This document shows positions 11,202 through 60,874 of a DNA stretch of 64,000 bases, piece after piece (the stretch's first letter is position 1; each line of letters starts with the position of its first letter). Both the position numbers and the translations under genes were made by a program. The notes below the pieces were generated by a model that searched no databases, was not told where the DNA came from, and was given only the letters and a program-made list of their open reading frames with translations. The DNA comes from Rhodospirillales bacterium (GTDB lineage Bacteria; Pseudomonadota; Alphaproteobacteria; Bin95): the NCBI GenBank assembly GCA_038143065.1, contig JAYQLI010000035.1:2080894-2144893 (forward strand), in the 5' to 3' direction.

Positions 11202-12431
11202 TTAGAGTTGTTTGTTAATTATGGCTTCCGCAACGTGCGGCACTGTTAAACGCTTTATAACAAAATCAAGCTTGGGATCCTTTCCACCACCAATTTTGCG
11301 GATCGCTAGCAGAGTTTGTCCCGCTTCAGTTTCATTCCAAAACCATGAGTTGATTTCTGCCGTATTGCCAACTGCTCCTGGCTGAGCGTTAGCTGCTTCC
11401 TGATAAAAAGTTAGAAGGTCGTTAACGCCCAACTTAAAAGTATTTGCAGTTTCGCTACCGGGCAAAAGCGCCCCAGGCTCTTGTCCATCGGCAAAGCTTC
11501 CAAAGAAGTCTGCAAGTTTTTCCGGTTCTAACCCAGTTAACCCAAATCCTGTTCTGCCATGCTTGCGCTTCCACGCTTCATGCCATGGAACAAGAAGTGA
11601 TACCTCCGCAGCTAGCCTTGTTGCATGGGTGTCATGGTCGCTGACTGAAGGGCTATTGAAGCTAACAGGACATACCCAGTTTTCATCATAGCTGGATATG
11701 TTGTTGTCTGGTGGTGCATCTTCAGGAAAGTCATTGAGAACTGGAGTTGCTTGGTTTCCAAGAAGCTTTAGTGCAGCTTTGATGACTCGGCGTTGAAACC
11801 TCGAGTCTCCTGGAGCACCTAAAGGCCGGCCCAGCTCAAATGGCACCCAAAGTGCGCGTGGTGGGCGGATTTTTTCAGCATGCGGCTTTACAAGCGCGAT
11901 GAGGGTTGTTGGTAATCCAGCAGCCTCCAGCTGATGAGCAATTGCGCACACGGCGCGAGTGCAATTTGGTCAAACAGGTAAAAGTAAAATAGCGTCGACT
12001 TTTTCTTGCTTCATCGACTTGGCAATCATATCGATCCCAGGCTTCATCGTTTCAGGATCAGAAGCGCCCATAAAGCTGTAATGGTGATCAGCAACTGTTC
12101 CGATCGTGCCGTCTTCAGCCATCTCACGAAGCCGCTCCAGAGGAAGAACAACATTCCAATCGCGCTGATACCCGGTTCTATCGTAATTGACGGAGATGTG
12201 GCTCATGACGATATCATCAGCTTCAGCATTTCCAGGAATTATCCTGTAATCTGCCGCTCCCATACCAAATGGGCTCTCTCCACGCATAGATAAGCCTGCC
12301 GTGGAGATAAGTGCGACACGACGTTCTGAAAGAGATGGGCCAATCGCAGATGGAGTGTCTTCAAATACCGGTAACGGTAACATTTCGATGTGCTTCCTTA
12401 GTGCCTCCGGCATATCGGATAGTCGAGCCAT
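11202..12431 (-). CDS. GrdB/PrdB-family selenoprotein (glycine/betaine/proline reductase selenoprotein B-like), Sec encoded by UGA at 11972-11970, with a C-terminal extension; 409 aa
   Basis: ORFs 11970..12527 and 11202..11951 are in frame across one TGA: DAILLLPV-U-PNCTRAVCAIAHQLEAAGLPT. GrdB/PrdB motifs RVALISTAG, DWNVVLPLERL, HHYSFMG and PRALWVPFELGRPLG. ATG at 12431 follows GGGGGA. Confidence 0.88.
11940..11969 (-). promoter_or_regulatory. Putative bacterial SECIS element of the GrdB-like gene
   Basis: mRNA after the UGA reads CCAAAUUGCACUC-GCGC-CGUGU-GCGC-AAUU: a 4-bp GC upper stem, a loop starting at +18 with G as second base, and AAUU/AAUU lower pairing. Confidence 0.65.
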
Positions 12432-12616
12432 TTGCTTATTCCCCCGCAATTTTCTGATGGCTGTATTGCAAAAACTACATACCGCCTCTGCGTGTGCTGG
12501 GCAGCCTAAATTATTGCGTAAAGCCACGGTATTCCGTTAGTTTAGAGATTAACGCGCGCAATTTGTAGAAACGCGTGTTGATAAAATTACATGCGTTAAG
12601 TTAGGGGACTGATTAA

Positions 12617-13596
12617 ATGAAAGTGAACGCGTTCGTCTTCGAAAAACCTGGTGCTGCTGGTGTTATGAAATGGCGCACCTTTGAGCTAGGTGATCCTGGT
12701 CCTGGCGAAGCATTAGTGCGTCACACCGCTATCGGTCTGAACTACATTGATGTTTACCATCGTTCTGGTCTTTATCCGCTGCAGTTTCCAAGTGGTCTTG
12801 GTCTTGAGGCGGCTGGAGTCGTTGAGGCCGTTGGTAAGGGCGTAACTCACGTAAAAAAGGCGACCGCGTAGCATATGGAACCGGAACGCTAGGAGCCTAT
12901 TCTGAAGCCAGAATAATGCCGGCTCAGCACCTTTTGAAATTGCCAAATGGCATTTCTGATGAAGAAGGTGCTGCCATGATGCTGAAGGGGAGGACCGTAG
13001 AGTACCTCTTTAATCGGACCTACAAGGTTAAAAAAGATGAGTGGGTATTGTTCCAAGCCGCAGCTGGAGGAGTTGGTCTTATCGCTGGTCAGTGGTTGGC
13101 TGCAGTTGGGGCTCATGGAATTGGCACTGCCGGTGGCCCCAAAAAGGTGAAACTCGCCAAGGAGCATGGCTTTGAGCAAGTTATCGATTACAAGAAAACG
13201 CAAAATATTGCTGACCGAGTAAAGAAGATAACAAAGGGTGCTGGAGTGCCGGTCGTTTTCGATAGTGTGGGCAAGGATACTTGGGTGCAATCATTGAACA
13301 GCTTAGCCCCGCGCGGGCTGATGGTCAGTTTCGGTAATGCTTCTGGTCCTGTGCCAGAGTTTGGTCTTGGGGAACTCGCAAGTCGAGGGTCTTTATACGT
13401 TACCCGACCATCTCTTGTGGCTTATACCTCTACTCGCCAGGAGCTCGAAAAATCAGCAAGAGCTCTTTTCAAGATGGTAACGTCAGGAGCAGTAAAAATT
13501 GAAGTGAACCAGACTTATCCATTGAAAGAAGCACCGCAAGCTCACCGTGATTTAGAAGGTCGTAAAACAACTGGTTCGACCATCTTTATACCTTAA
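12617..13596 (+). CDS. qor: NADPH:quinone oxidoreductase (zeta-crystallin/MDR family); apparent frameshift at about 12853-12859 (A run)
   Basis: GLNYIDVYHRSGLY, AAAGGVG and FGNASG motifs. Adding one A restores HVKKGDRVAY. Confidence 0.9.
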
Positions 13597-13614
13597 AGGC
13601 AGCCTATGCCTCGT

Positions 13615-13649
13615 AAACTGGCTCCAGTCACTTTGACTGGGGCCAGTTT
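13615..13649. terminator. Bidirectional intrinsic terminator between convergent qor and CMD-family genes
   Basis: Inverted repeat AAACTGGCTCCAGTCA-CTT-TGACTGGGGCCAGTTT. Confidence 0.8.
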
Positions 13650-13667
13650 CTATGGATTAACTGAGGT

Positions 13668-14216
13668 TTATTTAGGTAGTGGGTGCGCATCTAAGTGAGG
13701 CTGATAGCTTGGTTCTACGTCCACTCCAAGTGAGGCCAAAAGCCGAACGACGCCGCAATAAAAAGCTATCACAATCACTAAATCGACCATTAGTTCATTA
13801 CTAAGGTCTTCGGACAGTTGGTTATAAGTGGTTTCGGCCATTTCACCGTTTGTAGCCATTTCTCGAGCAGCCTGTAGGGCTAATCGGTAAAGCTTTGGAA
13901 GCTGGGTTTTTTCTCCTGCGGTCTCGAGTTTGACAGCTTTAATCTCGGTATCTGAGAGACCAAAATCCTTCCCAATTTTCACATGATGAGACCACTCATA
14001 TGGACTTTTGGATAACCAACCTACTTGAAGTATGGCAAGTTCCCGCAGTTTGGGATCTAGACGTGAGCCAAATCTAATCCAACTCCCAACTTTACCAAAA
14101 GCTTTGGCACCCTCTGGTGAGTGGGCCAGCGCTCTGTGGAGGTTAATAGGCCTTTTCAGTATCTCTTGGTCGTTTTCAGCGAGATCTTTAGCATCGAGGT
14201 AAGGTAAGCGTGCCAT
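13668..14216 (-). CDS. Carboxymuconolactone decarboxylase (CMD/AhpD-like) family protein
   Basis: LDPKLRELAILQVG...YEWSHH motif; no CxxC. Confidence 0.85.
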   Translation of the reverse strand: MARLPYLDAKDLAENDQEILKRPINLHRALAHSPEGAKAFGKVGSWIRFGSRLDPKLRELAILQVGWLSKSPYEWSHHVKIGKDFGLSDTEIKAVKLETAGEKTQLPKLYRLALQAAREMATNGEMAETTYNQLSEDLSNELMVDLVIVIAFYCGVVRLLASLGVDVEPSYQPHLDAHPLPK

Positions 14217-14217
14217 G

Positions 14218-15390
14218 TTAAGCAGTCTCCGCCAAAAATGAAGCAGCCGCGTCAAGCGCGCCGGCGCCATGGGGCACCTTTAGATGCTTCAACGTTAAAT
14301 CAATGCCAGCCAGGGCGCCCATTATCATTGGTTCATTAAGGTCACCCATGTGGCCAATTCTGAAAGCTTTATCAGCCAGCACGTGTAGCCCTCCGCCGAG
14401 GCTAACGTTGAAACGCTCTCTCGCTACTTGGCGAATAGTGTTCATGTCAGTTTGTCCCACCTGGCGAACACATGTGATAGAATTTGAGCGTGATTTTGGG
14501 TCCACAGTATTAAATTCAAGCGCCCCACCTTCTGCCCAGCGCGCAACGGCAGTTCTCGTAGCTTCAGCAAGCCGTGCGTGGCGCTCAATAATGTTATCAA
14601 GTCCTTCTAATCGAACTTTCTCCATGACCTTCATTAGACCCCAAACCATGTGCATGGGTGCTGTTCCGCAGAAGCGTCTATAGGTCTCCATCGCCATTCG
14701 GCTTTTCCAGGACCAATATTCTCTATGAGAAGTGCAAGCTTCAGAAGCTGCAAGTGCCTTAGGTCCTGCGGCGGTAAACGAAATACCAATGGGCATCATC
14801 AAGCCTTTTTGAGAGGCTGCTATCACGCAGTCAATTCCACTCTCATCCATATCCAATTTATGGCACCCAAAAGATGCAATTGCGTCTACAACAAAGAGTG
14901 CAGGGTGGCCAGAGGCATCGATAGCCTCTCGAATAGCTTCCAAATTACTAACAGCGCCGGTCGCGGTCTCCACGTGTACGGCCAAGACAGCTTTAATTTT
15001 CTTTTCTGTATCTTGTCTCAATGCGTCTTCAACAGCTTGGGGATCGATTGGTGAGCGCCAATCATTATTTAATCTGACTGTCGAAATGCCGAATGCCTTT
15101 ACCATGTCATCCCAAACGAGGGAGAACTGCCCGGTATCTGGCATCAAAACTTTATCGCCCGGTGACAGCAAATTGACAATTGAGGCCTCCCAGGCGCCAT
15201 GACCATTGGCGATATAGGCGAAAACTTCACCCTTTGTGCGAAAGAGGTCTTTCAGTTCTTCGAACATCCTAAGCATCGTTTCCATAAACTCAGGAGCAGA
15301 GAAATCTTCTGCAGGTCGATGCATTGCGTTAAGCACATCTTCTGGGATGTTGGTTGGGCCCGGGGTGTGTAGAAACATTCGACCTGGCAT
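14218..15390 (-). CDS. Class V PLP aminotransferase (serine--glyoxylate/alanine--glyoxylate aminotransferase-like)
   Basis: TPGPTN, HVETATG, VDAIAS, ASQKGLM (PLP lysine) and FRIGHMG motifs. Confidence 0.9.
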   Translation of the reverse strand: MPGRMFLHTPGPTNIPEDVLNAMHRPAEDFSAPEFMETMLRMFEELKDLFRTKGEVFAYIANGHGAWEASIVNLLSPGDKVLMPDTGQFSLVWDDMVKAFGISTVRLNNDWRSPIDPQAVEDALRQDTEKKIKAVLAVHVETATGAVSNLEAIREAIDASGHPALFVVDAIASFGCHKLDMDESGIDCVIAASQKGLMMPIGISFTAAGPKALAASEACTSHREYWSWKSRMAMETYRRFCGTAPMHMVWGLMKVMEKVRLEGLDNIIERHARLAEATRTAVARWAEGGALEFNTVDPKSRSNSITCVRQVGQTDMNTIRQVARERFNVSLGGGLHVLADKAFRIGHMGDLNEPMIMGALAGIDLTLKHLKVPHGAGALDAAASFLAETA

Positions 15391-15427
15391 TACAACCTCT
15401 CAGTGATCGTTTTTAAGAAAATGGGAA

Positions 15428-15450
15428 GGGCGACAGAAAAACTGTCGCCC
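15428..15450 (-). terminator. Intrinsic terminator downstream of rne
   Basis: Perfect 9-bp stem GGGCGACAG-AAAAA-CTGTCGCCC followed by a T-rich tract on the minus strand. Confidence 0.75.
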
Positions 15451-15465
15451 AAGTCAAAGATGTTG

Positions 15466-18066: not shown

Positions 18067-18504
18067 CTAATGTTTTCTCCAGCGCGATGCTGAAGCCAAT
18101 TTTCCGACCAGGCTCTGCCAAATGGTTAACTCCGTGCGTTCGAAAAAGAACGTGACGAGTGCCTTTACTATCTGCTTGGCAATATATTTCGGTCATGCGG
18201 GCTCCAGGTGTGCGCGCAAAGTTAATTCTGCGTTCGGAATCGTTCAGCCGCGCTAAGGTTTTAACCTTGTCAGCGCGATGCTGATCGACCTTCGTCGTCT
18301 CACTAGGGCACTTGCGATGTGAAGAGCCAAGTGGCGCGTCGAAATAAATCCTTTTCAATATGTATAGGTAGAAGTGGAAACCAACAACAAAAATCGGCAG
18401 CAATTCGATCTGAAATATTTTTCCAGGTCCAACTATTTAGGAATTATGTCGGTTTAAAAGGACTGTTCAGTAAAAAATCAGGGATTTTTTGGGTTAGAAA
18501 AGGG

Positions 18505-20043: not shown

Positions 20044-20246
20044 TAGATGCCTCTCCAGTGTTTATTTTTTATTACAATAAATATACGCGCAGCTGTCTAA
20101 TAAAATGCTCGAGCGTCAGGTCTAAAGTCTGAAGATAATCTTATTTATTATTATCCGGGAAATAAATTTATGCTCGGTAAGTGTCCTGTGATACCAGAGA
20201 ATAAACTTAATTCGTGCTTACGAGAGCTTTCAACTCAACGATTACA

Positions 20247-20275
20247 TTGACAAAAACACAAATTTTAATTAACTG
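20247..20275 (+). promoter_or_regulatory. Candidate sigma70 promoter for the DEAD-box helicase
   Basis: Perfect -35 TTGACA at 20247, a 17-nt AT-rich spacer, then TAACTG as an imperfect -10. Confidence 0.45.
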
Positions 20276-20376
20276 GACCGCGATTATCTATCGTTGTGTT
20301 GCGATAGATCCAGTCTTAGTGGTTTTCACGAAAGCCCTTTTTTCCCAATAATTGATTAGTGATTGTTTAAACCCGC

Positions 20377-21819: not shown

Positions 21820-21833
21820 CGGTCTAAGACCTG

Positions 21834-22403: not shown

Positions 22404-22481
22404 TTAATCACTCGACTTATTCTCCACGGATTGTATTTCCGTCTCACAATATATTGATACATATCGGAGCATCATTACAAG

Positions 22482-24718: not shown

Positions 24719-24976
24719 CTTCTCACTCTTTAAAAGGAACTAAATAGTTTACGTGTGTGGCGGTTCTATGGATCAAATTCAGAATTTTTTGGGTTCTGCG
24801 GGGAAATATAGCTTTTTCAGTTGCATGATAATTTAGAGATATTTTAAGCAGAAGTTTGCATGAGCTGACCAGACTAATACGATAAGGCGTAACAGCTTTT
24901 AAGTTTATTGAAAGCATAGACAGCGTTTGAAAATGTCTATTTTGATGGAGCAGAATGAATTGCTCTGAATGCCTGA

Positions 24977-25291: not shown

Positions 25292-25357
25292 GGCGACCCT
25301 AGCAATTCCAAAATGGGGGTTACGCAGCTTTTTAGATTTGGAATCGATTTAGCGAAT

Positions 25358-26512
25358 TTAGCTCATCAGACGCGATAGTACTGCGTTAAGTCTTTGTCGG
25401 CCATCTGCCGTTGCGCACAAATGGGAGTCATTCAATTCAAGAAACCCTCCGTCTATGAGGGTTTTTAATGCTGATTTGTCTGCCAATGCTTCAAGAGACA
25501 GTCCAGTTTGAAAAGAGAGCCTGTCTAGGTTGACGCCTTCTTTGAGCCTTAATCCCATCATGAGATTTTCTTGACCTATTTCCACTGCTGTCAGAGCAAT
25601 TTTTTCAGCTACGCCATTTCCACTAGCCTCTACTCGTGAAATCCATGCTTCTGGGGTTTTTACTTGCCGAAATGCTGTTCTATGGCCGTTGACACCTAAT
25701 CTCCCGTGTGCCCCAGGCCCCACGCCAACCCACGAACCACCGCGCCAATAAATTAAATTATGTCGAGCTTCTTGGCCGGGGTAAGCATGGTTTGAAATCT
25801 CGTAATTTAAGAGTCCTGCCGAAGATAAAACTGATTGGGTTGCCTCGAATAATTGTCCGGCAAAGTCATCTTCTGGTATTTGAAAAAGTCCACGTGCATG
25901 AGCGCCATGGAAGGCAGTTCCTGGTTCGATCGTTAGCTGATACGCAGAAAGATGGCTGCTTCCAAATGATAGAGCTTGGTAGAGTTCATTTTCCCAGGCT
26001 AGCTGAGATTGTTCTGGCAAAGCATAAATAAGATCAAGAGACCAACGATTAAAGGTTTCACTTGCTATCTTTATGGCTTTCAAGGCATCCGCTGCTGAAT
26101 GCTGACGGCCCAAGAATTTTAATGCATCATCATTGAGAGACTGTACGCCAAGAGAAACTCGATTGACGCCTGACGCCGCATACCCCGCGAACCGTTCTGC
26201 TTCAACGGAACTGGGATTGGCTTCCATTGTGATTTCAATGTCGTTACTGAAACCCCATTCCCGTCGAGCTGCATCAATCACCGAAGCAATAACCTCAGGT
26301 TCCATGAGCGATGGGGTGCCGCCACCAAAGAAAATAGTTTCAAGCGGACGGCCATCAGTGTTAGCCGCAAAGTAAGCGATTTCCTCTGTTAAGGCTTTTG
26401 CCCACCGGGACTGATCAATTTCTGCTCGGACGTGACTGTTGAAGTCACAGTAAGGGCATTTAGATTGGCAGAACGGCCAGTGAACGTACAGGCCAAAGCT
26501 ACCTTCATGCAT
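25358..26512 (-). CDS. hemW: Radical SAM heme chaperone HemW
   Basis: YVHWPFCQSKCPYCDFNS, FGGGTPS, YEISN and HNLIYW motifs; in an operon with rdgB and rph. Confidence 0.93.
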   Translation of the reverse strand: MHEGSFGLYVHWPFCQSKCPYCDFNSHVRAEIDQSRWAKALTEEIAYFAANTDGRPLETIFFGGGTPSLMEPEVIASVIDAARREWGFSNDIEITMEANPSSVEAERFAGYAASGVNRVSLGVQSLNDDALKFLGRQHSAADALKAIKIASETFNRWSLDLIYALPEQSQLAWENELYQALSFGSSHLSAYQLTIEPGTAFHGAHARGLFQIPEDDFAGQLFEATQSVLSSAGLLNYEISNHAYPGQEARHNLIYWRGGSWVGVGPGAHGRLGVNGHRTAFRQVKTPEAWISRVEASGNGVAEKIALTAVEIGQENLMMGLRLKEGVNLDRLSFQTGLSLEALADKSALKTLIDGGFLELNDSHLCATADGRQRLNAVLSRLMS

Positions 26513-26521
26513 TAGAACTAC

Positions 26522-29091: not shown

Positions 29092-29098
29092 AGGATCT

Positions 29099-30484
29099 TT
29101 GAACTTGGTTAGTGTATTACTGAACTCTGCCCGAAATTCTTTGCCTCTTGATGTTGTAGAAACGTCACAATTTTCAATCTGGTGCGATACTCTGCCTAAG
29201 AATTCGCTAACTTGGGTCGAAGCATCTGGTTTTATGGCCAGAGCAGGTGAGACGGTTTTGTTGCCTGACTCGAGTGGTTTGCCTGCCTCTGCAGCACTTG
29301 GTATTTCCAGTTTAGATGATGTGTGGGCTCTTGGAGATGCAGGATTAAAATTACCACCAATACGACCCTATAAAATTCGAACTAAGCTATCAAAGCTGCA
29401 AGCAACTAATGCTGCAATTTCCTGGGCTCTGGGAGCATATAAATTTGACCGTTACAAAACGAAAGGTGGTCACAAAGTTGCCCAGGTGATCTGGCCAAAG
29501 GGCGCAGATAAAACCCTCGCTGAGTCGGTTATTGATGGTGTTTCCCACGCTAGAGATCTTATATCCACTCCCGCTAATGAGATGGGACCAAAGGAATTGG
29601 CTGCCGCTGCTCGAAAGATTGGCCGCCAGCACCGGGCAAAGATCTCAGTAATTGTGGGTGATGATCTTTTAAAAAAGAATTTTCCGACAATCCATGCCGT
29701 TGGACGTGCAAGCTCTCGCGCACCGAGATTAATAGATATGACTTGGGGCAATCCAAGAGCGCCCAAAGTCACCCTTATCGGTAAGGGTGTATGTTTTGAT
29801 ACTGGAGGCCTTGATCTTAAGCCGTCGGGGGCAATGCTTAACATGAAAAAGGATATGGGGGGAGCTGGTAACGTATTGGGGCTTGCCCACTCAATTATGG
29901 CGACGAAGCTTAATATTCGTCTTCGAGTACTTATTCCGGCAGTAGAGAATAGTGTATCAGGCGACGCGTTTCGGCCGCTTGACGTTATCAAGACCCGAAA
30001 GGGTATCACGGTTGAAATTGGTAATACCGATGCCGAAGGACGCCTTGTGCTTTGCGACGCGATAGCCCTCGCCGTGGAAGAAAGCCCAGATCTCGTTATC
30101 GATTGCGCAACGCTGACTGGAGCGGCGCGCGTTGCACTCGGGCCAAGTTTGCCTGCCCTTTTCTGCAACAATGATGCTCTTGCCGCTGATATTCTTGGGG
30201 GTGGTTTAGAGGCAGATGACCAATTTTGGCGTTTACCTCTCCATCAGCCGTACAAAAGCATGTTGAAGGGCGAAGTGGCTGACTTAAATAATGTTTCGTC
30301 AGGTGGTTTTGCCGGAGCCATCACTGCAGCATTGTACCTGCAGGCTTTTATTGAGGACACGGTCCCATGGGCACATATTGATATGATGGCTTGGAATCCA
30401 ACAGGTAGACCTGGTCGTCCCAAAGGCGGTGAAGCTCAAGGTTTGCGAGCGTTATTGTCCATGCTTCAAAAGCGTTATTGCTGA
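29099..30484 (+). CDS. Leucyl aminopeptidase, M17 family (PepB-like)
   Basis: GKGVCFDTGG, MKKDMGG and NTDAEGRL motifs. Confidence 0.93.
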   Translation: MNLVSVLLNSARNSLPLDVVETSQFSIWCDTLPKNSLTWVEASGFMARAGETVLLPDSSGLPASAALGISSLDDVWALGDAGLKLPPIRPYKIRTKLSKLQATNAAISWALGAYKFDRYKTKGGHKVAQVIWPKGADKTLAESVIDGVSHARDLISTPANEMGPKELAAAARKIGRQHRAKISVIVGDDLLKKNFPTIHAVGRASSRAPRLIDMTWGNPRAPKVTLIGKGVCFDTGGLDLKPSGAMLNMKKDMGGAGNVLGLAHSIMATKLNIRLRVLIPAVENSVSGDAFRPLDVIKTRKGITVEIGNTDAEGRLVLCDAIALAVEESPDLVIDCATLTGAARVALGPSLPALFCNNDALAADILGGGLEADDQFWRLPLHQPYKSMLKGEVADLNNVSSGGFAGAITAALYLQAFIEDTVPWAHIDMMAWNPTGRPGRPKGGEAQGLRALLSMLQKRYC

Positions 30485-31182
30485 CCTTTTCGATGAACTA
30501 GTACTGCAATAACTAACCACGCAATAGCTAAACCAAACCAAGTGAATGAATATTGCAGATGATTATCTGGAATATTCGGTTTTGCCTGTCGGCCAGTTAA
30601 ACCCTCAGGAGGGTTGGTCAAGCGAAGAATTAAAGAGGATATCTGGATATCGTTGAGACCGGCTGTTCGGGTTAATGCAATTGGATCAATCCAATACCAG
30701 TCTTTAGGTGGTTGGTTATCAGGGGTGAAAGCGGACGGCTTTCTGGCTGGAATTAAAACACCCTCAATGATAGTAGCGCTGCGAGGAAGAGAGATTTCTT
30801 TGATCTCATTATTTGACCATCCCAACTCAACAGCAATGATTCCTCCATCCTTCAAGCGAAAAGGTGCCGCATACACACTGCCAACCTTCCCAGCTGATGT
30901 AGTTGGAAAAACACGTATTAGATGACCAAGTACCCATGAGCCATTAGCTAGGACTGGGTGCCATGAAAAAGTGCTTTCGGGAATTTTTTCAATTGTAACA
31001 GGAGGTGATGCCAGACCGGCATTAATTTCTGCCAGCATGTTTTGTTTCCATGCACGCCTCTCCCACTGCCAAATCCCGAGTCCTGTAAGAATTAGGAAAC
31101 CCACTATCGATATAACGATAAATATGCGACTTTTCATGGACTTAGAGGGCAGTTGACCGACGTCGATATTGTATGTCGACAA
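30475..31182 (-). CDS. SURF1-family cytochrome oxidase assembly protein
   Basis: LGIWQWER..WK and NHLQYSFTWF motifs; true start probably near 31137. Confidence 0.9.
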   Translation of the reverse strand: MSTYNIDVGQLPSKSMKSRIFIVISIVGFLILTGLGIWQWERRAWKQNMLAEINAGLASPPVTIEKIPESTFSWHPVLANGSWVLGHLIRVFPTTSAGKVGSVYAAPFRLKDGGIIAVELGWSNNEIKEISLPRSATIIEGVLIPARKPSAFTPDNQPPKDWYWIDPIALTRTAGLNDIQISSLILRLTNPPEGLTGRQAKPNIPDNHLQYSFTWFGLAIAWLVIAVLVHRKGQQ

Positions 31183-31459
31183 ATTTGGCTTTTAGTGGCC
31201 TTAGCAGCGCTAACGTTAAGCCGAGAACGACTAAAGGCCAGACCAAAAAATGAAGCCAATAAAGTGGCTCAAAAAGTATCTCTAGACTGAGTGCGCCAAT
31301 GACTGAAAGAGCGCCAAAAATGAAGGTTACAAAGATGGCGGGACCATCCCCTGCATCATGAGCACGCAAGTCCAGTCCGCATGAGGGGCATTTTGGGTTT
31401 ACATCTAGCAACCCAGAGAAAAATGCACCTTGTCGGCAGCGTGGGCACCGGGCACTCAC
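31142..31459 (-). CDS. DUF983-family protein
   Basis: RCPRC...CPSCG...DGPA pattern; usual position between ctaE and SURF1. Confidence 0.85.
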   Translation of the reverse strand: MSARCPRCRQGAFFSGLLDVNPKCPSCGLDLRAHDAGDGPAIFVTFIFGALSVIGALSLEILFEPLYWLHFLVWPLVVLGLTLALLRPLKAKFVDIQYRRRSTAL

Positions 31460-31465
31460 TCTCGC

Positions 31466-32263
31466 TCAGCCACCCCAAACGTAAACGCAAGCAAACAAAA
31501 ACAGCCATACAACGTCAACGAAATGCCAGTACCATGCGGCAGCTTCAAAGCCAAAATGATGGTCAGATTTGAAGTGACCATTCATACCGCGGAACAGACA
31601 GACTGCTAGAAAGATGGTGCCGATAATAACATGGAAACCATGGAAACCGGTCGCTAGGAAAAAGGTTGAAGGATAAATTCCATCACGGAAGCCAAACGCT
31701 GCGTGACTATACTCATAAGCCTGCAATATTGAGAAGAAGAGCCCCAGAAGAACTGTTATTGTTAACCCTAAGATAAAATCTTTGCGATTATTGTGCAGAA
31801 GAGCGTGATGCGCCCATGTGACGGTGCAGCCTGAAAGCAGCAGTATTAGCGTATTGAGGAGCGGGAGATCTAAGGCATCAAATGTTTGAATCCCCTCGGG
31901 AGGCCACACAAAGCCAGTTGCTGCTTTTGGAAAAAGGCTTGCATCAAAGAAGGCCCAGAAAAACGCCGCAAAAAACATCACTTCCGATGCAATGAAGAGG
32001 ACCATGCCATATCGAAGCCCTATCTGTACTGTTTTGGTATGATGTCCCTGATGTTCGCCTTCTCGAACGACATCGCGCCACCAGCCAAACATCACGCCTA
32101 CTACGCAAAGTACTCCAATGATAAGAAGCCAATATGACTCAAGTCGCATTACCATGAGAGCACCTGCTGCAAGAACTAATCCTGCAAAAGCACCCAAAAA
32201 TGGCCATGGGCTTGGGTCAACTAGGTGGAATGGATGTTTGGGCGCGGCGTGGCTATCGGCCAT
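31466..32263 (-). CDS. ctaE: Cytochrome c oxidase subunit III
   Basis: HPFHLVDPSPWP, TGFHGFHV and WYWHFVDVVW motifs. Confidence 0.97.
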   Translation of the reverse strand: MADSHAAPKHPFHLVDPSPWPFLGAFAGLVLAAGALMVMRLESYWLLIIGVLCVVGVMFGWWRDVVREGEHQGHHTKTVQIGLRYGMVLFIASEVMFFAAFFWAFFDASLFPKAATGFVWPPEGIQTFDALDLPLLNTLILLLSGCTVTWAHHALLHNNRKDFILGLTITVLLGLFFSILQAYEYSHAAFGFRDGIYPSTFFLATGFHGFHVIIGTIFLAVCLFRGMNGHFKSDHHFGFEAAAWYWHFVDVVWLFLFACVYVWGG

Positions 32264-32293
32264 TTTTAAGCTCCTCGGCTAGTGCCGGTTAAT

Positions 32294-32865
32294 TCAACAG
32301 CTTAGCCTGGACATTACCAGAGGTGACATCACGGGCTGGGAAAAAGTATAAGAAAGTGTTATCGATTTAACATCATCTAAATTGCGATCTTCTGATATCT
32401 CAGGATCAATAAAGAAAGATACGGGAAAGTCCATAGTCTCCCCGGATTGGAGAACCTGCTCCTCAAAGCAGAAGCATTGTACTTTATTGAAGTAGATACC
32501 TGCTTTTTGTGGGGTAACGTTGAAAACAGATGTACCTGTTAGCGCTTGGTGAGAGGTATTCGTCGCTTGGAAGAACACCAGATGCTCTTCGCCAGCCTTC
32601 ACTGATATAGCGCTGCCAGATGGACGGAAAGACCAGTCAAGTTCTGGACTAATGTCAGTATTAAATCGGACTGTAAATTCACGGGCATCTTGCGGTGCAC
32701 CTGGTGCCGCTTCAGCTCTTTGGGTTGTTCCACCATACCCTGTCACCCTGCAGAACAGGTCGTAAAGCGGTACGGACGCGTAAGAGAGCCCAATCATTCC
32801 AACGACTACCCCAGCAAGAACTACAGCTAGTCGTCGGTTTTTTTGTTAGGCGCACTCTCAACCAT
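32294..32865 (-). CDS. ctaG: Cytochrome c oxidase assembly protein CtaG/Cox11; apparent frameshifts near both ends
   Basis: VPLYDLFCRVTGYGGT and QCFCF motifs. The ATG at 32865 is off-frame by one A in a homopolymer at about 32838-32844, and the C-terminal T run at about 32341 is also one base short. Confidence 0.92.
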
Positions 32866-33035
32866 CAACCTGCCCCTAGGCCGGCCTGAATCCGAACAAT
32901 TGTCACGAGATAAAAGGTTGCCATCAAAGCAACAAGAGCCCCAAGAATTGCAAGGTTGCGAACACGTTTTCGACGATGCAATGCGCTGTTCCTAGGAGAA
33001 ATATCTGAACGCTTAGACGGACGAGCTAGAGGCAT
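32865..33035 (-). CDS. Small single-TM protein between ctaB and ctaG (CoxF-like; 56 aa; not in the ORF track)
   Basis: Manual translation MPLARPSKRSDISPRNSALHRRKRVRNLAILGALVALMATFYLVTIVRIQAGLGAG; fills the ctaB-ctaG gap and overlaps the ctaG start (TGATG). Confidence 0.8.
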   Translation of the reverse strand: MPLARPSKRSDISPRNSALHRRKRVRNLAILGALVALMATFYLVTIVRIQAGLGAG

Positions 33036-33037
33036 AG

Positions 33038-33949
33038 TCAACCACCTAGAATGGCGTGATCCGCAATTAGACCACCAAGAAGCAAGAAAAGATAAAGGAT
33101 CGAAAATCCAAAGAGACGTTTTGCATCCCGATCATCGTCGCTCTGAAACAGCCGATACGCCATTCCAACAAACAGTGCCCCTAATATAGCCGCAAACCCA
33201 CCGTATGCGATGCTAGACAGGCCAACTGTCGTAGGTGTTATACCGATTGGCGCTAGAATAAGACTGTAAATAAGAATTTGTTTTCGAGTTTCCGTCCGAC
33301 CAGCAACAACTGGTAGCATTGGTACACCAGCGGCAGCGTAATCATTTGCCCTGTAAAGGGCCAGTGCCCAAAAGTGTGGGGGTGTCCAGAAAAAGATAAT
33401 CAGAAAAAGTACGAACGAGCCTACTGTTACATCTCCAGTAACAGCAGCCCATCCAATCATTGGTGGAAAGGCACCCGCAGCCCCTCCGATAACAATATTT
33501 TGAGCCGTGCTGCGTTTCAGCCACATTGTGTAAACAAAAATATAGAAGCCAATAGTCAAAGCTAATAAAGCAGATGCTGCCCAGTTCACTGCTAATCCCA
33601 TCAAAGCGATGGAGCCTACTGCAAGAATGCAGCCAAATCCTAGGGCTGTTGTCTTATCAATGAGACCGGCAGGAATTGGGCGTCTGGCCGTTCGTGACAT
33701 TGTGGCGTCGATATCTGCATCGTACCACATATTAATTGCGCCAGATGCACCAGCGCCAATTGCAATGCATAGAATTGCTACGACAGCCAACACAGGGTGG
33801 AGTGACCCAGGTGCAACGAACAGCCCGGCTGCTCCGGAAAATACGACCAGAGACATTACGCGAGGTTTTAGCAAAGCCAGAAAATCCCGAACGCTGGGGT
33901 CAGCGCTCGGGGTTTCGGTTAAGGCTGAGACAACTGTCGCTTCGGCCAT
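33038..33949 (-). CDS. ctaB: Protoheme IX farnesyltransferase (heme o synthase)
   Basis: [20 protein letters not shown] and WTPPHFWAL motifs. Confidence 0.96.
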
Positions 33950-33985
33950 TGGCTTTCGTCTGAGCTCGCTTAGCTCCGCGGCGCG

Positions 33986-36524
<2,539 letters not shown>

Positions 36525-36746
36525 ACGGTCTGCCTCACTTCCACAACTGTCCGTACAAGATCAACCTAACGGGACATACGATTTTAATAACCTATTCGCT
36601 ACACTATTCAGCCACTTTTTGGAACCTATGCGACTGGTTGTCGCTAAAATTTCGGCACACATTAAGTCTCTACAAATTCCATCTATGGTTAGAGATGTAT
36701 CTGCATTTCAGAGTCGTCAATGCTTACCGACTTAGGAGGGGATATA

Positions 36747-38180: not shown

Positions 38181-38186
38181 TTGTTT

Positions 38187-39296: not shown

Positions 39297-39457
39297 AATC
39301 TCGAAAACAATCTAAACGACAGATTAATTGTCGCTGACTTTTTAATGTAAGCAAATTAACAATTTTTTGAGCTTGAATAAATGTGCAGCGCAAATGCAGA
39401 ACCTTCTTTGCCACATTTATCCAATTAATTTCCCCAAGCTTGCAGTACTGATTGATT

Positions 39458-40279
39458 TTACCCGTCTAGCCGAGCGCGAATGGCGCGAAGATCCTGCCAG
39501 GCTTGTTTTTTGCGCCGGCTGACGCAGCAGGAATGCAGGGTGGAATGTAGGCAAGGCTGGGATAGATAGGCCACTAGGTTCATCGCGCGTTTGGAAATCA
39601 ATCCATCGACCGCGGAGGCGAGTTATGCCAGTCGTCTCATTCAGTAAGCTTTGAGCAGCTGGTCCACCAAGAAGCACTAGCACTTTTGGACCAATCAGCT
39701 CAATTTGTCTCAACAAGAAGGGTAGAGTCGCATTTCGTTCTTCTGGTGTAGGCGTTCTGTTTCCAGGTGGACGCCAGTACAAGGTATTGGTCACGTACAC
39801 TTCTGACCGATTAAGGCCGATAGAGGCCAACATTCGGTCGAGTAATTTTCCACTAGGCCCAACAAATGGGATTCCTTGACGATCTTCTTCAGCGCCAGGA
39901 GCTTCGCCAATCAACATTAATTTTGCTGCCAGTGCTCCATCACCAAAAACTGTATTTGTAGCAAAGCGCTTGAGCGTCCCACCGTCAAAACCTTCAAGGC
40001 ATTGGCGAAGCTCTTCTAGAGTTGATACGCTTTTAAGGTCTTCGAAAGAGGTTTTTAATTGCCCTGAGTCGGCTAGCCTTACCGGGGAGTGGAATCGTTA
40101 AAACGTGTTTGGGCCAGTGATTTAGCCCCAAGTTTTTCCGTAGCTGGTGGATCTGAACTTTCAAAACGGTTCCAAGGAACCTCTTGAACGACGTCGGTTG
40201 CTCCTGCCTCAACTTGCCAACGCAACATTGAAAGCAACGTTTGCCGGTCTAGTCCGTCTATTGATTCGTTCGCCACCAT
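39458..40279 (-). CDS. Uracil-DNA glycosylase, family 4; two apparent frameshifts (near 40085 and near 39508)
   Basis: IGEAPG.EED..G.PFVG.SG, WRPPGNRTP and TFHPAFLLR motifs. Adding one A restores PAQKKQAWQDL. Confidence 0.88.
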
Positions 40280-40379
40280 GGCGCTGTTATAACTCCTGCC
40301 CTATCTTTAAAACATATGTATACTTTAGGTTGATGCGTTAGCGTCGCCAAGTAACTGTACTGGGAGAGATAGGAGCGTC

Positions 40380-42024
40380 ATGGAACGGGAGAGTATGGAG
40401 TTTGATGTCGTCATTGTTGGTGGAGGGCCCGCGGGACTGTCAGCAGCAATCCGTCTAAAACAACTCGCGGCCGAGTCAGGTAGTGACATTAGCGTTTGCT
40501 TGCTCGAAAAGGGCTCTGAAATCGGTGCGCACATTCTTTCTGGTGCTGTGCTTGATCCGCGCGCATTAAATGAGCTTTTACCCAATTGGAAGGAATTAGG
40601 AGCACCGCTTAACACGCCAGTGAAACGCGACAAGTTTTTATTCTTAGATAAGAAGGGTGGCTTTCGGGTTCCTGAGTTCGCAATGATGCCAGCAATGAAA
40701 AACCATGGGAATTTCATTGTCAGTCTAGCAAACGTTTGCCGCTGGCTGGGTGAGCAAGCAGAAAGCGTTGGAGTTGAGATTTATCCGGGCTTCGCAGCCG
40801 CTGAGGTGTTATTTCACAGCGATGGCTCAGTCAAAGGCGTTGCCACCGGGGATATGGGAATAGGAAAGGATGGAGAGCCTAAGGCTGGTCATGAACCAGG
40901 CATTGAACTCCATGCTAAATATACTTTCTTTGCCGAGGGGTGCAGGAGGCCATCTTGGCAAGCAGCTCATGGAAACATTTAATCTTCGAGATGAAGCCCA
41001 GCCACAAACCTATGGAATAGGTATTAAGGAGTTATGGGAAGTAGATCCGGAGAAGCATGAGCAAGGTCTAGTCATGCACACCGCTGGGTACCCCATGGAT
41101 CGAAATACGTATGGGGGATCATTTCTTTACCATCTTGAAAACAATCAAGTGGCATTAGGATTTGTAATTGGCCTCGATTACGAGAACCCATACCTTTCAC
41201 CCTACGATGAGTTTCAACGCTGGAAATCTCATCCAGTTATCAAGCAAACCTTAAAAGGAGGTAAGCGCATAGCTTATGGTGCGCGTGCATTAAACGAGGG
41301 TGGCGTCCAATCTCTTCCAAAATTGGTATTTCCGGGAGGTTGTTTGATCGGATGTGATGCAGGCTTCCTAAACATGCCCAGGATCAAGGGAAGTCATGCC
41401 GCCATGAAGACAGGCATGCTGGCGGCAGAGGCTGCTTTTGAGCGTGTTTCAAAGGGTTCAGAGGGCCGAGATGAATTGACAGAATACCCAGAGGCTTATC
41501 GGGCTTCTTGGTTACATAAGGAACTTTGGTTGGCTAGAAATGTTCGACCAGCATTCAAGTGGGGCCTGATTGGTGGTACCCTGTATGCAGGGATTGACCA
41601 AGTGCTCCTGCGTGGTCGTGCTCCTTGGACATTGTCGCACCACGGTCCTGACCATGCTGCGATCAAGCCAAAATCAGAATTTAAACCAATTGATTATCCG
41701 AAATATGATGGTGAGATTACTTTCGACAAACCATCTTCTGTGTATTTGTCTGCGACCAATCATGAAGAGGATCAGCCAGTACACCTGACCTTGAAAGATC
41801 CATCGGTACCAATTCAAACAAACCTCGAATTGTATGATGCGCCAGAACAACGATATTGCCCGGCGGGGGTGTATGAGATTGTTGCTGACAATGGAGAGCC
41901 GAGATTGCAGATAAATGCTCAGAACTGCGTTCACTGCAAAACCTGCGATATTAAGGACCCAACTCAGAATATTGTTTGGGTAACACCAGAAGGTGGTGGA
42001 GGACCAAATTACCCTAACATGTGA
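40380..42024 (+). CDS. Electron-transfer flavoprotein-ubiquinone oxidoreductase; apparent +1 frameshift at about 40945
   Basis: [21 protein letters not shown], and C-terminal CPAGVYE...[13 protein letters not shown]; AEGCRGHLGK is split between frames. Confidence 0.93.
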
Positions 42025-42031
42025 TCGTTCT

Positions 42032-43714
42032 ATGGGACGTTTACTTTTTCTCTATTCTTTTTGGCCTTCGGCGTCGCGACGCAAACAATTTGTTCTGCTT
42101 CTGCGGCGCCAGCGGGGTTTGCTTCTGCTTATCTCTCCGGATTAGTAGCTGAGCAAAGAGGAGAAATCGGCAGAGCCTCTACTTACTTCGCACACGCTCA
42201 AGAGACTGCACCAGAAACACCAATGCTCCAAAGGCGTGTTATGCGTTTGCAGCTTTTGGAAGGCCAATTTGATTCGGCAGCGGAAGCAGCCCGTCTTATG
42301 GCCAAATCAGGTGACGATAACTTTCCTACAACACTTATTCGTTTAGTAGATTTCCTTAGAGATGGAAACTTTAAGGGTGCCCTCAATCTCGTAAACAGGC
42401 CAGGGTCTAATGGTCTTTCCCCTGTGGTTACGGTTCTGGCAACGGCTTGGTCACAAGCGGGAGAGGGTAAGGTTGATGAAGCGATTAAGGTCCTTACTGA
42501 TTCAGCTAAGGAAAATCCGGATTTACAAACATTATTTTTATTGCACGCTGCTTTTTGGCAGAACAAGCCACTCGTTTAGATATTGCTCGATGGCTGTATG
42601 AAGAATCCCTTTCAGCAGCCGAAGCTAAGAAACAGACTATTTCACCTCGATTAATTCATGCTGTTTCCGGATTCTTTGATAGGAGGGGCATGTCAACAGA
42701 AGCGGCAGAGGTGCGCGCAAAAGGATTTTCTTCCCTCGACATTATGTCACCAGCACAGTCAATTGTTACATCTCCTACTGAAGGCTTCGCAGAAGCGTTA
42801 TTCAATATTGCTGGAAGTCTCTATGGAGACCGGCAATACATACAGGCTCTGAGCTATACTAGATTATCGGAAGTTCTTCGGCCGAATGATCCATCTGTGC
42901 GTTTTACAACAGCGCAAATTTTAGAAGCTTTAGGCAGATATATGGACGCGGTTAAAGCTTATGAATTGGTTCCAAAAGTAGGGTCATACGGCTGGCAATC
43001 TAGGCTGCGTCTGGCGGAAAGTCTTTCAGACGCCGGCGATAGTGAAGGCGCTATAAACGCGATGCGCCATCTGCTCGATATGGAGCCAGATGAGCCTCAG
43101 GTAGCGTTAACGCTTGGAAATATCCTGCGCGCCCATAATTACTTTCCTGAGGCTGTAAAAGCTTACGATGAGGCTGTTCGTCGTCAGGCAAAACTTGGTA
43201 AAATTGATGCGTGGCTTCACTACGCGCGAGGTGTTGCGCTTGATCGTTCAGGTCGTTGGCCTGAGGCAGAAAAAGAATTTCTCGAATCTCTCAAGACGCT
43301 ATCAGAAGAGCCATTGATATTGAATTATCTCGGCTACAGCTGGATTGATCGTGGAGAAAATATAGAGCGTGCATACGGCATGGTTTCTCGCGCAGTAGAA
43401 TTAAGACCGGATGATGGTTTCATTCGTGATAGCCTTGGCTGGGCAGAGTTCGAACTGGGAAATTTGAAAAGGCGGTTATTACGTTAGAGCTGGCCATTGA
43501 AATGCAGCCTATTGATCCCGTCATTAACGAACACTTGGGCGACGCTTATTGGCAGGTAGGTCGCTTCCGTGAAGCTCGCTTCCAATGGAGGCGCGCACTC
43601 TCGTTTGAGCCTGAGGATAAGCAAGTTTCAATAATCGAAACAAAATTAAAGTGTGGAATCGATGGCTGTCCAACCCCTATCGATGCCAGTAACAAGAGCG
43701 ATAATGGTAACTAA
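42032..43714 (+). CDS. Tetratricopeptide-repeat protein upstream of ispE; several apparent frameshifts
   Basis: Fragments 42061..42579, 42555..43487 and 43502..43714 carry LNYLGYSW, DSLGW and DPVINEHLGDAYW..GR..EARFQW motifs. Confidence 0.85.
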
Positions 43715-44578
43715 AGGCAGTTGGCAAATTTCACGGGCTCCTGCAAAGGTAAATCTTAGTCTTAAGGTTGTGGGGCGCCGAGCTGATGGCTATCACTTGC
43801 TTGATAGCATCGTCGTATTTTCAAATTTTGGAGATCATCTGGCGCTTAAGCCTACACTATCTGCGCCAACTCTAAGTATTAGAGGGCCATTCGCGGCTAA
43901 CCTTGAAAGTTCCCCAGAGAATAACTTGGCCTTCTTAGCAGATCGTGCATTTGCTGAGGCATTTGGCGGCACTCGTTGTGACATACGACTCTGGAAACGC
44001 TTGCCAACGGCAGCAGGCATCGGTGGTGGCTCTGCCGACGCTGCAGCGGTCTTGCGCTTAAAGGCCAAGCTAGCTGGAATACCTTTAAATGATACCGACC
44101 TTAACATGGTTGCTCTTTCATTGGGCGCTGATGTTCCAATGTGCTTGCGGGGTAGATCGGCGCGTGTGGGGGTGTTGGGGAAACACTGATTGAAGCCCCT
44201 ATGATGCCTGCGCTTCCTTCAGTATTGGTGAATCCAGGAGTGATGCTTCCAACACCGTCGGTCTTCAAACTGCGATCTGGTCCTTTTTCAACTTCAACAA
44301 CGCTGCCCGAGGCTTGGAATGATTTGTGTGAGGTTTCGGAAGCCGTTAATGACCTTGGGAATGACTTAATGCAGGCGGCTATTCACATAGAGCCTGTCAT
44401 AAAAGAAGTTTTGTCAAACCTCAAAGCAATGGCAGGCCTAAATGTGGCCTCAATGAGCGGCTCCGGTGCTACATGTTTTGGTTTATTTGATGATTTAAAA
44501 TCTGCACGCCAGGCTGCACGCGCACTTAAACGTCGATGGCCAGGCTGGTGGGTTGCTGAGATGGTATTGAATCCATAA
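43704..44578 (+). CDS. ispE: 4-diphosphocytidyl-2-C-methyl-D-erythritol kinase; apparent frameshift at about 44168-44172
   Basis: APAKVNLSL, RADGYHLLDS, AGIGGGSADAA, LGADVP and MSGSGATCF motifs. Confidence 0.93.
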
Positions 44579-44616
44579 TACTTACTTCGAGATTCTTTAA
44601 GGTAGCAGTAAATTAG

Positions 44617-46353
44617 ATGGAGGCCTCTATGGAGAGAGAAGCAGCCTTATGGCCTAGAGGTGCGAAAGCGGCTGGAGCCAAGCCGCTCGCAAAGCGCCTA
44701 GATAGTCTTGAAGGCAAAACTGTTGCCTTTCTTTGGGATTATATGTTTCGCGGCGACGAAATTTTTCCACTTATAGAACGTGAACTGTCCTCCAAGTATT
44801 CTGGCATTAAATTCATTGGATACGACCATTTTGGCACCACGCATGGAGGTGGTGAAAGAGAGGTTATTCGCACTCTTCCAGAGCACATAAAAACACTTGA
44901 GATAGACGCAGTCGTCTCAGGTATGGGTTGTTGAGGTAGCTGTACGCCCGCCGTGTTGCGGGCGAGTGCAGCTGCTGAAGCCGCCGGCATTCCAACGGCA
45001 AGCTTAGTTTGCGATGGTTTCCTCGGTCAGGGTCGATCTACAGCAGCCGGTATAGGTATGCCAAATATTCCTCTGGCGCAGGTTACTGGTCATGTCGATG
45101 TCCAGACAACTGATGAGTTAGTCTCAAACATAGTTGGTGTTACCATCCCAGCAGTAATCAAGGCTCTTACCGAAGATCCACCGCCTGTTGCTTCTCCTAC
45201 TGAGCCAAAACCAACAGATGTTGTATTTCAGGGTACGTTCGAGGAAGTGAACCAGTATTTCTACGAGAATGGCTGGACTGATGGGCTTCCCATAGTGCCG
45301 CCTACGCTAGAGCGGGTCCAAGCATTTTTGAAGTTTACTGATCTTCCTCAAGATACGGTGCTCGGCCAGGCACAGCCCGACAATAGAATTGCGACCGTTT
45401 GGAATGCAGCAGTAAACGGCGTTATGGCGGGATGTAAGCCAGAATATATGCCGGTGATGGTAGCCGCCATTCAGGCAATGTGTGATGAGGAATATGGGGT
45501 TGAGCACTCTGGAAATACACCAGGGGCGGAAACTTTGCTGATTCTTAATGGCCCTATAGCCCAAGAACTTGGATTCAATGCAGAGCAGGGCGTACTTCGC
45601 GATGGCATTATGGCCAACACAGCTCTTGGGCGTTGGTGGAGGCTTTGCCTGAAAAACATTGCTGGTTTTCGCCATCAACAAACCGACAAAGCAACCTTTG
45701 GGGGAACCTGGAAGGTTGCTATGGCGGAAAATGAGGACGTTTTGCAAGAAATTGGCTGGCCACCAATGGCCGCAGAGTTTGGATTTAAACTTGGCGAAAA
45801 TGCTATCTCTATCGCTCGATTTACTGGTGGAGATGTTGTTACTAGTGTTTTTGGGGATAAGGCGGAATCTATTCTCCCCTATTTGGCAGATGCGCTTGCA
45901 CGTATATCGGCATGGCAACTTGTTTTCACTGTTGGCATGTCGACGGGGACTTATCGTCCTCTGCTAATCATTTCTCCAATTTTGGCACGAACTATCGCTA
46001 AGTCTGGGTGGTCTAAAGATCAGGTGAAAGACTATCTGTTTGAGAACGCTCGAATTCCAGCTCATAAGTTCGAAAAATACATGGGTGAATATACTAACCT
46101 AATTCCAGGACGCCAAACTCTCTATGACATGGCGCAGAAGGGAGAGGCACCACCAGTTTTTGGCGTGTCAGATGATCCAGAAAGATTGGTACCTATCGTT
46201 TTTGAGGCTAAAGATTTTCTGATTGCAGTTTCAGGAGATCCGGGACGAACAAATGCCTATGTAATGAGCCATAATGGGCAGCTTGGTTATACTGTTGGGG
46301 CTGGTATTAAGACCCCACAGAATTGGCCAGCTTTGCTCGACGATCTGGACTAA
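44617..46353 (+). CDS. UGSC-family selenoprotein fused to a large C-terminal domain, Sec encoded by UGA at 44932-44934; 578 aa
   Basis: ORFs 44617..44934 and 44953..46353 are in frame across one TGA: DAVVSGMGC-U-GSCTPAVLRASAAAEAAGIPT. The C-terminal domain begins GWTDGLPIVPPT...NGVMAGCKPEY. A strong hairpin lies immediately 3' of the UGA. Confidence 0.88.
44938..44973 (+). promoter_or_regulatory. Putative bacterial SECIS element of the UGSC gene
   Basis: AGCUGUA-CGCCCGC-[CGUGUU]-GCGGGCG-(AG)-UGCAGCU: perfect 7-bp GC upper stem, 2-nt bulge, 7-bp lower stem with one G-U pair; the loop starts 18 nt after the UGA. Confidence 0.8.
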
Positions 46354-60839: not shown

Positions 60840-60874
60840 TTTCCTTCGTTCCTTCAAGCGCTGGAGCCGGATGG

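Follow-up and report, generated by a model that had tools for sequence, protein, structure and literature searches.

Two genes lying 33 kb apart in one stretch of an alphaproteobacterial genome are each a single reading frame with a single in-frame TGA, and their translations look alike around that codon. The locus raises the question whether they form one selenoenzyme system or are two separate selenoprotein genes that share a domain. The stretch analysed, called the window here, is 64,000 nucleotides (nt) long and comes from Rhodospirillales bacterium (assembly GCA_038143065.1, contig JAYQLI010000035.1, positions 2,080,894 to 2,144,893 of the forward strand). Gene A codes for a protein of the PrdB/GrdB or 'selenoprotein B' family, and gene B for a domain of the UGSC family joined to a partner domain (Table 1); their genomic contexts are unrelated. 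A sequence-only reading of the window had proposed that the two make up a stand-alone selenoenzyme system, and we found its observation partly confirmed and its interpretation partly supported, the shared domain being the useful part. The account that we consider probable is that the window holds two independent selenocysteine (Sec, U) genes of one old superfamily, with distantly homologous Sec domains and different added domains.

Table 1. Coordinates of the two genes and of related Sec features (window positions, or contig and position where a contig is named)
Feature	Position	Strand	Description
Gene B	44617..46353	+	578-codon selenoprotein gene; UGSC domain fused to partner domain
Gene B Sec codon UGA	44932..44934	+	Residue 106, motif C-U-G-S-C (residues 105-109)
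UGSC domain, gene B	44647..45171	+	Residues 11-185
Partner domain, gene B	45214..46350	+	Residues ~200-578; probably 'Unknown_1' of the 2008 survey
Gene B SECIS hairpin	44939..44972	+	Upper stem 44946-44951/44958-44963, loop CGUGUU 44952-44957, lower stem
Gene A	11202..12431	-	409-codon selenoprotein gene, ATG 12431, stop 11202-11204; PrdB/GrdB family with C-terminal extension
Gene A Sec codon UGA	11970..11972	-	Residue 154, motif U-P-N-C
PrdB-like Rossmann-type Sec domain, gene A	11742..12344	-	Residues 30-230
All-helical C-terminal domain, gene A	11208..11627	-	Residues 269-408; seven helices in the AlphaFold 2 model
Gene A candidate SECIS hairpin	11942..11958	-	Stem GCGC/GCGC with closing U-A pair, loop CGUGU 11952-11948
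Stand-alone UGSC genes	C35:915353-915850, C35:1743585-1744094, C35:109117-109611		~178 codons, in-frame TGA, motif ADUGSC
Further PrdB-like Sec genes	C35:1681092-1681742, C35:2335117-2335515		Motif U-P-V-C-H-Q-T-V
tRNA-Sec(tca)	C35:2209072-2209168		64 kb past the window end

Both in-frame TGAs are genuine Sec codons. At the DNA level the relatives of each gene (families A and B) were taken from 80 loci each in public collections, those of family A being metagenome loci; 79 family B loci were usable and gave 80 sites. TGA stands at the Sec position in 80 of 80 family B sites (79 of the 80 loci), and 76 of the 80 family A loci gave a frame of full length in which this codon is likewise TGA. Cys occupies the Sec position in 15 of 16 full-length database homologues of gene A and in four genomic forms, and the Cys forms of family B read A-C-G-S-C. 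With 8000 candidates scored for each gene, 1560 relatives of gene A and 4930 of gene B were found at E <= 0.001; those listed are mostly fragments that begin just after the TGA (~247 residues for A, ~466 for B), and the full-length entries carry Cys at the Sec position. The source genome (4.63 Mb, completeness 97.6%, contamination rated 5.5%) has selA, selB and selD, all over their curated cut-offs, with selA and selB side by side and the selA frame intact except for a slightly short C-terminus. The tRNA-Sec gene completes this machinery, and the claim of the sequence-only reading that both are selenoprotein genes is supported. Five more Sec genes of the superfamily, three of them stand-alone UGSC genes and two PrdB-like, were found by family searches on the contig labelled C35, which also holds selC; a small contig is labelled C36. 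The selD match (C35:517788-518672) lies inside a 531-codon open frame, against a model of 311 positions, and may be one of the SelD fusions of the ocean survey. The PrdB-like gene at C35:1681092-1681742 is divergent from a gene that is TauD/TfdA-like by eye only.

We then considered how closely the two Sec domains resemble each other. They align without gaps, exactly as had been quoted, with U-PNCTRAV-CAIAHQL-EAAGLPT in A and U-GSCTPAV-LRASAAA-EAAGIPT in B, each after (V/I)DA and hydrophobic residues. When thin family alignments were compared, hhalign scored the pair at 92.3% (E 5e-7, 85 columns), and with 76 family A and 40 family B sequences at 85.1% (E 6e-6, 90 columns), Sec falling on Sec both times. 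The match also spans about 50 columns upstream of Sec, with a helix and the strand 'VDAV', and the downstream E-x-x-G-x-P-T strand. Among NCBIfam models, PrdB was matched by 28 of the 40 family B members (best E 3.7e-4), GrdH by 13, TIGR01918 by 8, GrdB by 5 and GrdF by 4, and stray matches to unrelated models came to one to three members each. In the reverse direction, Pfam UGSC was touched by just one of the 76 family A members (E 0.14). In reciprocal profile searches no reversed or shuffled decoy scored more than 4.7 bits, and all 76 and all 40 real sequences lay above the decoys, with medians of 11.6 and 11.9 bits; since the members of a family are kin, this result counts as one observation and not as 76. 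The UGSC-domain profile, searched against 1.84 billion representatives, gave 1229 proteins at E <= 0.001, and the best 150 all align within that profile.

The AlphaFold 2 models of gene A (predicted local distance difference test, pLDDT, 90.3) and gene B (pLDDT 89.4) are both Rossmann-like, and Sec lies between a beta-strand and the next helix, at the helix N-terminus. The order of elements is alike in the two models, strand-helix-strand-helix-strand-[Sec]helix-strand-helix-strand-helix. VIA-align retrieved 20 chains common to the top 50 of both models, all generic Rossmann-like chains; these searches bear on the Sec domains and barely test the C-terminal ones, as the models exceed or approach 400 residues. 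Foldseek against the PDB gave no match for A at E <= 0.001. A likeness of B to class I fumarate hydratase came up in the same database and was not trusted, its template modelling score being only 0.17-0.18. No thioredoxin-fold chain was among the VIA-align and Foldseek matches listed, all of which are Rossmann-, flavodoxin- or SDR-type (SDR, short-chain dehydrogenase), and absence from such a list does not exclude the fold. Taken together, the profile and model comparisons support a shared domain, and the two Sec domains would be distant homologues. The earlier proposal that UGSC is a GrdB-type relative is supported by the alignment of Sec on Sec and by the PrdB matches.

The second line of evidence comes from the RNA hairpins downstream of the TGAs, the candidate selenocysteine insertion sequences (SECIS). 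The canonical bacterial SECIS, for example that of Escherichia coli fdhF, is a hairpin directly after the UGA, with an upper stem from about 11 nt and G-U in the apical loop. The hairpins of A and B are like it in beginning ~11-12 nt downstream of the UGA and in having an exposed G-U in the loop; they differ in that the G-U of the CGUG(N)(U) loop stands at +19/+20, one base closer than in fdhF, and the family B core is kept letter for letter across phyla. We confirmed that GCCGTGT occupies +16 to +22 after both TGAs (A 11954-11948, B 44950-44956). In gene B, a CCCGC/GCGGG stem carries a CGUGUU loop from +18 (-29.4 kcal/mol, z -4.9, 0 of 200 shuffles as good). Codon and hairpin analysis was done on 42 family B sequences below 85% protein identity and on 54 diverse metagenome sequences of family A. 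In family B the P-A-V-L-R that comes after Sec is encoded by CCC GCC GTG YTG CGG without exception, and the third positions of codons +5 to +9 have 0 bits, compared with a mean of 1.34 (minimum 0.38) in 126 equally conserved four- or six-fold columns (Mann-Whitney p 0.002). Five pairs are invariant and the closing pair of the upper stem covaries (GC in 28, AU in 12, broken in 1), so that the structure is 97.9% paired, compared with 25-52% when the partners are slid. The core CCCGCCGTGNTGCGGG is identical in the 80 family B sites, which span many phyla, except for one CCT at the proline codon. It is unchanged in loci whose titles name Alpha-, Beta- and Gammaproteobacteria, Acidimicrobiia, Dehalococcoidia, Methylomirabilota, Nitrospinota, Myxococcota and others. 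One betaproteobacterial contig bears two UGSC-fusion Sec genes 3.5 kb apart (4286, 7793) with the same SECIS core.

The hairpin of gene A is supported at the family level only. A GCGC/GCGC stem of four G-C pairs around CGUGU is possible, and the minimum-energy fold is a different structure. In family A, codons +4 to +6 (ACG CGC GCC) have 0.45-0.76 bits, compared with 1.79 elsewhere (p 1e-4). RNAalifold found three pairs only. In a seven-pair register tested by hand, pairing reaches 87%; covariation is scarce, and 26 of the 54 sequences have a G-G mismatch. All four genomic Cys forms of A lack the GCC codon, have Ala or Thr in place of Val and have lost the hairpin pattern; it therefore seems to be for the sake of the RNA that Val, which places G-U in the loop, is retained. 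Judged from these codon patterns, the hairpins are under synonymous-site selection as RNA, a constraint for which the sequence-only reading had suggested looking. Further support for the gene A hairpin comes from the two PrdB-like Sec genes elsewhere in the genome, in which CGUG(U/A) again forms the loop at +18 and the stem, CAGAC/GUCUG, is quite unlike that of A. The three stand-alone UGSC genes have yet another hairpin, UCGUGCA/UGCAUGA, whose loop at +20 is GUU. As a DNA word by itself, TGA-N15-GCCGTG is unremarkable, with 27 occurrences in the genome and about 30 copies expected from base composition. Only two of the 27 copies, namely those of genes A and B, have a frame around them that stays open for 40 codons or more in both directions, and a scan that had been expected to reveal more selenoproteins yielded no further one. 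Rfam gave no match within the window.

A wider claim can be attached to these results, and we advance it tentatively. UGSC and GrdB/PrdB may descend from one Sec-bearing ancestor and may have inherited its SECIS (ACG-CNC-GCC-GUG, CGUG loop at +18). The abundant UGSC-plus-partner units of aerobic aquatic bacteria might then be working analogues of the GrdB-plus-GrdE reductases, and UGSC, contrary to what the literature assumes, would not be thioredoxin-like.

Several points weigh against the account of two distantly homologous Sec genes. BLASTP of A against B reached only E 0.007 over 62 residues, and the case for relatedness therefore rests on profiles. The models of A and B were compared by element order and not by superposition. 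PDB searches with both proteins and both family profiles gave nothing usable, so there is no experimental 'GrdB fold' for comparison. The gene A hairpin is thermodynamically undistinguished (-9.6 kcal/mol, z +1.0, 171 of 200 shuffles at least as stable); of the claim that both genes fold a CGUGU(U) loop at +18 on a GC stem, the part on B stood and the part on A did not. Many genes in the assembly are split by frameshifts, so that single-base errors must be common, and the TGAs are nonetheless conserved in other assemblies. The redox cycle outlined below is drawn from the U-x-x-C motif and textbook PrdB/GrdB chemistry. Finally, the likeness is confined to about 90 residues and is strongest where the hairpin constrains the codons, so part of it may be imposed by the SECIS.

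This last point leads to the rival that survives best, namely that the likeness around Sec is convergent, a GC-rich SECIS with a GU loop having forced the codons ACG CNC GCC GUG on two unrelated Rossmann-like domains. It would explain why the strongest identity lies within ten RNA-constrained codons and why Val vanishes in the Cys forms of A, where RNA appears to shape the peptide; the generic fold matches and the modest pairwise E value agree with it as well. However, the hhalign match takes in the columns upstream of Sec and also the E-x-x-G-x-P-T strand, which is outside the constrained codons, the Cys forms of family B retain T-P-A-V, and the 28 cross-matches are specific to PrdB/GrdB-type models and not to other Rossmann families. 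We regard convergence as unlikely.

Gene B is a UGSC-family domain fused to a domain of ~380 residues that normally accompanies UGSC. It passes the Pfam UGSC cut-off of 25 (PF24696; 103.7 bits, E 1.6e-29) and does not reach the UGSC_fam equivalog NF041046 (49.5 bits vs 125), a model of 147 positions built on the stand-alone form. The partner domain has an invariant C273 and the motif GVEHSGNTPG. It matched no Pfam family at E <= 5 among 40 members, and at the same threshold no likeness to PrdA/GrdE was found for it or for the helical domain of gene A. A protein atlas search with it gave only unnamed clusters and some that are automatically named 'thioredoxin family' or 'thiol-disulfide oxidoreductase'. 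In the source genome, a paralogue of this domain adjoins every one of the three stand-alone UGSC genes. A species-genome collection held 575 relatives of gene B. A paralogue at 28-35% identity lies directly downstream of B, within a few bases, in about 30 of the 79 family B loci, and an SDR recurs nearby in 33 of 79. The window copy has neither neighbour, and it stands between a split ispE and a convergent transporter gene.

The residue before Sec is Cys in 78 of the 80 family B sites (C-U-G-S-C), and in the ten pattern-matching Cys forms the residue before Cys is Ala (A-C-G-S-C); the preceding Cys seems to be tied to selenium use. A 566-residue paralogue of gene B at C36:11552-12991, on the small contig of a genome whose contamination is rated 5.5%, reads C-D-G-G-T at the C-U-G-S-C site, with neither Sec nor Cys, and judging by this sequence it would be a redox-dead or differently wired copy.

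We next weighed whether A and B, even if homologous, work as one stand-alone system peculiar to this lineage, with a lineage-specific SelB-binding loop. Both genes do lie within one 64-kb window with GCCGTGT at the same distance from the TGA, a CGUG(U/A) loop at +18 is found in four GrdB-type or fusion-type genes of the genome, and no Grd/Prd partners were found. GrdA and PrdA/GrdE-type genes were not found in the window, as had been noted, and PF09338 (PrdA/GrdE) and PF04723 (GrdA) had no match in the genome, in searches that also matched 0 of 14 control genomes and so had no positive control. The distribution data largely refute such a system. Among 301 sampled genomes of the class, full-length A was found in 23, a close B orthologue in 9 and both in three, this genome included; occurring together in only three of nine B-carrying genomes, the two are not one system. 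The neighbours differ too, and around family A no neighbour recurs in more than 9 of 76 loci. B, being fused to its partner domain, does not stand alone. Nor is the loop lineage-specific, since the CGUG loop is family-wide across phyla and its geometry canonical: B has the same loop and stem in 80 sites across many phyla, family A keeps its own version of the hairpin across 54 diverse metagenome sequences, and in the source genome itself the stand-alone UGSC genes have a hairpin of another kind, with GUU as its loop. We consider the one-system proposal very improbable; A and B are two independent selenoprotein genes.

Gene A is an ordinary member of the 'selenoprotein B' family (PrdB/GrdB, Pfam GRDB), in a form common in aerobic aquatic bacteria. 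It passes the Pfam GRDB cut-off of 22 (PF07355; 34.2 bits), as do its relatives in that 76 of 76 family A members match PF07355, and mean column identity in the family is 52% over 76 sequences. Its motif is U-P-N-C-T-R-A-V-C and not UxxCxxC. An extra insert in the model, residues 44-97, bears its most conserved residues, and C254, W283, Y343, E345 and P351 are conserved in the family. The helical C-terminal domain matched no Pfam family at E <= 5 among the 76 members. Public annotation calls homologues of gene A 'D-proline reductase PrdB', and the NCBI name of its relatives is 'glycine/sarcosine/betaine reductase selenoprotein B family protein'. Upstream of gene A, at a distance of about 1.2 kb (13668-15390), lie an AhpD/CMD-family gene and a class-V aminotransferase; the latter is of the NifS/cysteine desulfurase/selenocysteine-lyase type, a possible link to selenium or sulfur handling.

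These names invite the view that gene A encodes the B subunit of a genuine reductase of the D-proline or glycine type, which would work with an as yet unrecognised pyruvoyl partner and carry out Stickland-type reductive cleavage. The NCBIfam PrdB model (TIGR04483, an equivalog) does align with residues 30-225 at E 6.5e-32, yet its score of 110.9 bits is far below the cut-off of 300, and gene A also stays under the cut-offs of glycine reductase GrdB (TIGR01917; 47.5 bits vs 602.2), GrdF and GrdH. The failure to match PF09338 or PF04723 in a genome 97.6% complete, in the searches without positive control described above, speaks against it as well. In addition, the PrdB model lacks the extra helical domain of gene A, and no operon partner is conserved. 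The host is an aerobe, with an aa3 oxidase (30475-36524) and a bc1 complex (60027-62655). We hold a true reductase to be most unlikely. Of the respiratory and haem genes that the sequence-only reading had listed, the aa3 oxidase and the bc1 complex are there and HemF is not: the coproporphyrinogen-type gene at 25358-26512 is of the radical-SAM HemN/HemW type, and the oxygen-dependent HemF was not found among the window open reading frames (ORFs) scanned.

At least eight other genes of the window are split into two adjacent or overlapping ORFs with complementary Pfam halves. They lie at 12617-13596, 40380-42024, 43653-44578, 46350-47557, 51569-52683, 55296-56005, 59055-60052 and 60875-62073, and they comprise a quinone oxidoreductase, electron transfer flavoprotein-quinone oxidoreductase (ETF-QO), IspE, a major facilitator superfamily transporter, 3-dehydroquinate synthase, an integrase, a purine/uridine phosphorylase and cytochrome b. 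The splits point to frequent assembly indel errors or to genuine decay, and their frequency meant that an error had to be considered for the TGAs too. A reading of the TGAs as true stops or errors of assembly, and of the genes as pairs of fragments or pseudogenes, as the splits and the listing of halves as separate proteins in databases could suggest, has next to no probability left and is refuted by conservation: the same TGA stands at the same codon in the 80 B sites and 76 A loci, in independent assemblies, which excludes the error explanation, Cys forms exist, synonymous constraint and covariation fall exactly downstream, and the Sec machinery is complete.

If A and B are two independent Sec genes of one superfamily, each could work along the same lines. 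The UGA would be read as Sec by SelB and tRNA-Sec, aided by the hairpin with its G-U at +19/+20. The selenol would attack a substrate or a disulfide, a nearby Cys would resolve the adduct to a selenenylsulfide, and a thiol or an NAD(P)H-linked donor would re-reduce it. A hint of such an NAD(P)H link comes from the SDR that neighbours B in other genomes. Among the added parts, the PrdB-type insert and the helical domain would set the substrate choice of A, and the partner domain that of B; neither protein would need the other.

For the window itself, the outcome is ordinary, in that each of two known families gains a member. In metagenomes from ocean and fresh water the two families belong to the most abundant selenoproteins, and placing UGSC by selenoprotein B, instead of by the thioredoxin-like proteins, would provide a testable model, with selenol attack followed by selenenylsulfide resolution. 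On this model the partner domain, whether fused or neighbouring, would be the half that holds the substrate. In addition, a 16-nt RNA core that is kept letter for letter within a coding region across phyla, and lost in Cys forms, would be an RNA signal that shapes protein sequence.

Both families have been catalogued since 2007-2008, and the genes of the window are ordinary members mis-split at the UGA; the suggestion that they announce an uncharacterised Sec chemistry does not hold as a discovery. In the portions of the ocean survey available to us, UGSC-containing proteins (255 Sec sequences) and 'Proline reductase PrdB' (pfam07355, with a UxxC motif; 235 Sec sequences) are among the top selenoprotein families, and a 'UGSC/Unknown_1' fusion is reported in supplementary Figure S1 (Zhang and Gladyshev, PMC2398784). 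UGSC is called a selenoprotein of unknown function in the accessible text of another paper (Zhang and Gladyshev, PMC1976440), and the UxxCxxC motif is given for GrdB in that of a further one (PMC13188914). No link between UGSC and GrdB/PrdB was found in the portions of the UGSC selenoprotein literature available to us. Compared with the UGSC family (PF24696, NF041046), gene B shares the U-G-S-C motif and the PF24696 match, and it differs from the stand-alone form of NF041046 in being the long fused form of 578 amino acids. Nothing separates gene A from the environmental PrdB family (pfam07355), with which it shares the GRDB match, U-x-x-C and the names of full-length relatives. With PrdB and GrdB/F/H of anaerobes it shares a homologous Sec domain with Sec first in U-x-x-C, whereas it scores far under all of the equivalog cut-offs and its host is aerobic. 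Unlike the classical PrdB/GrdB subunits, A and B are both extended by an added domain.

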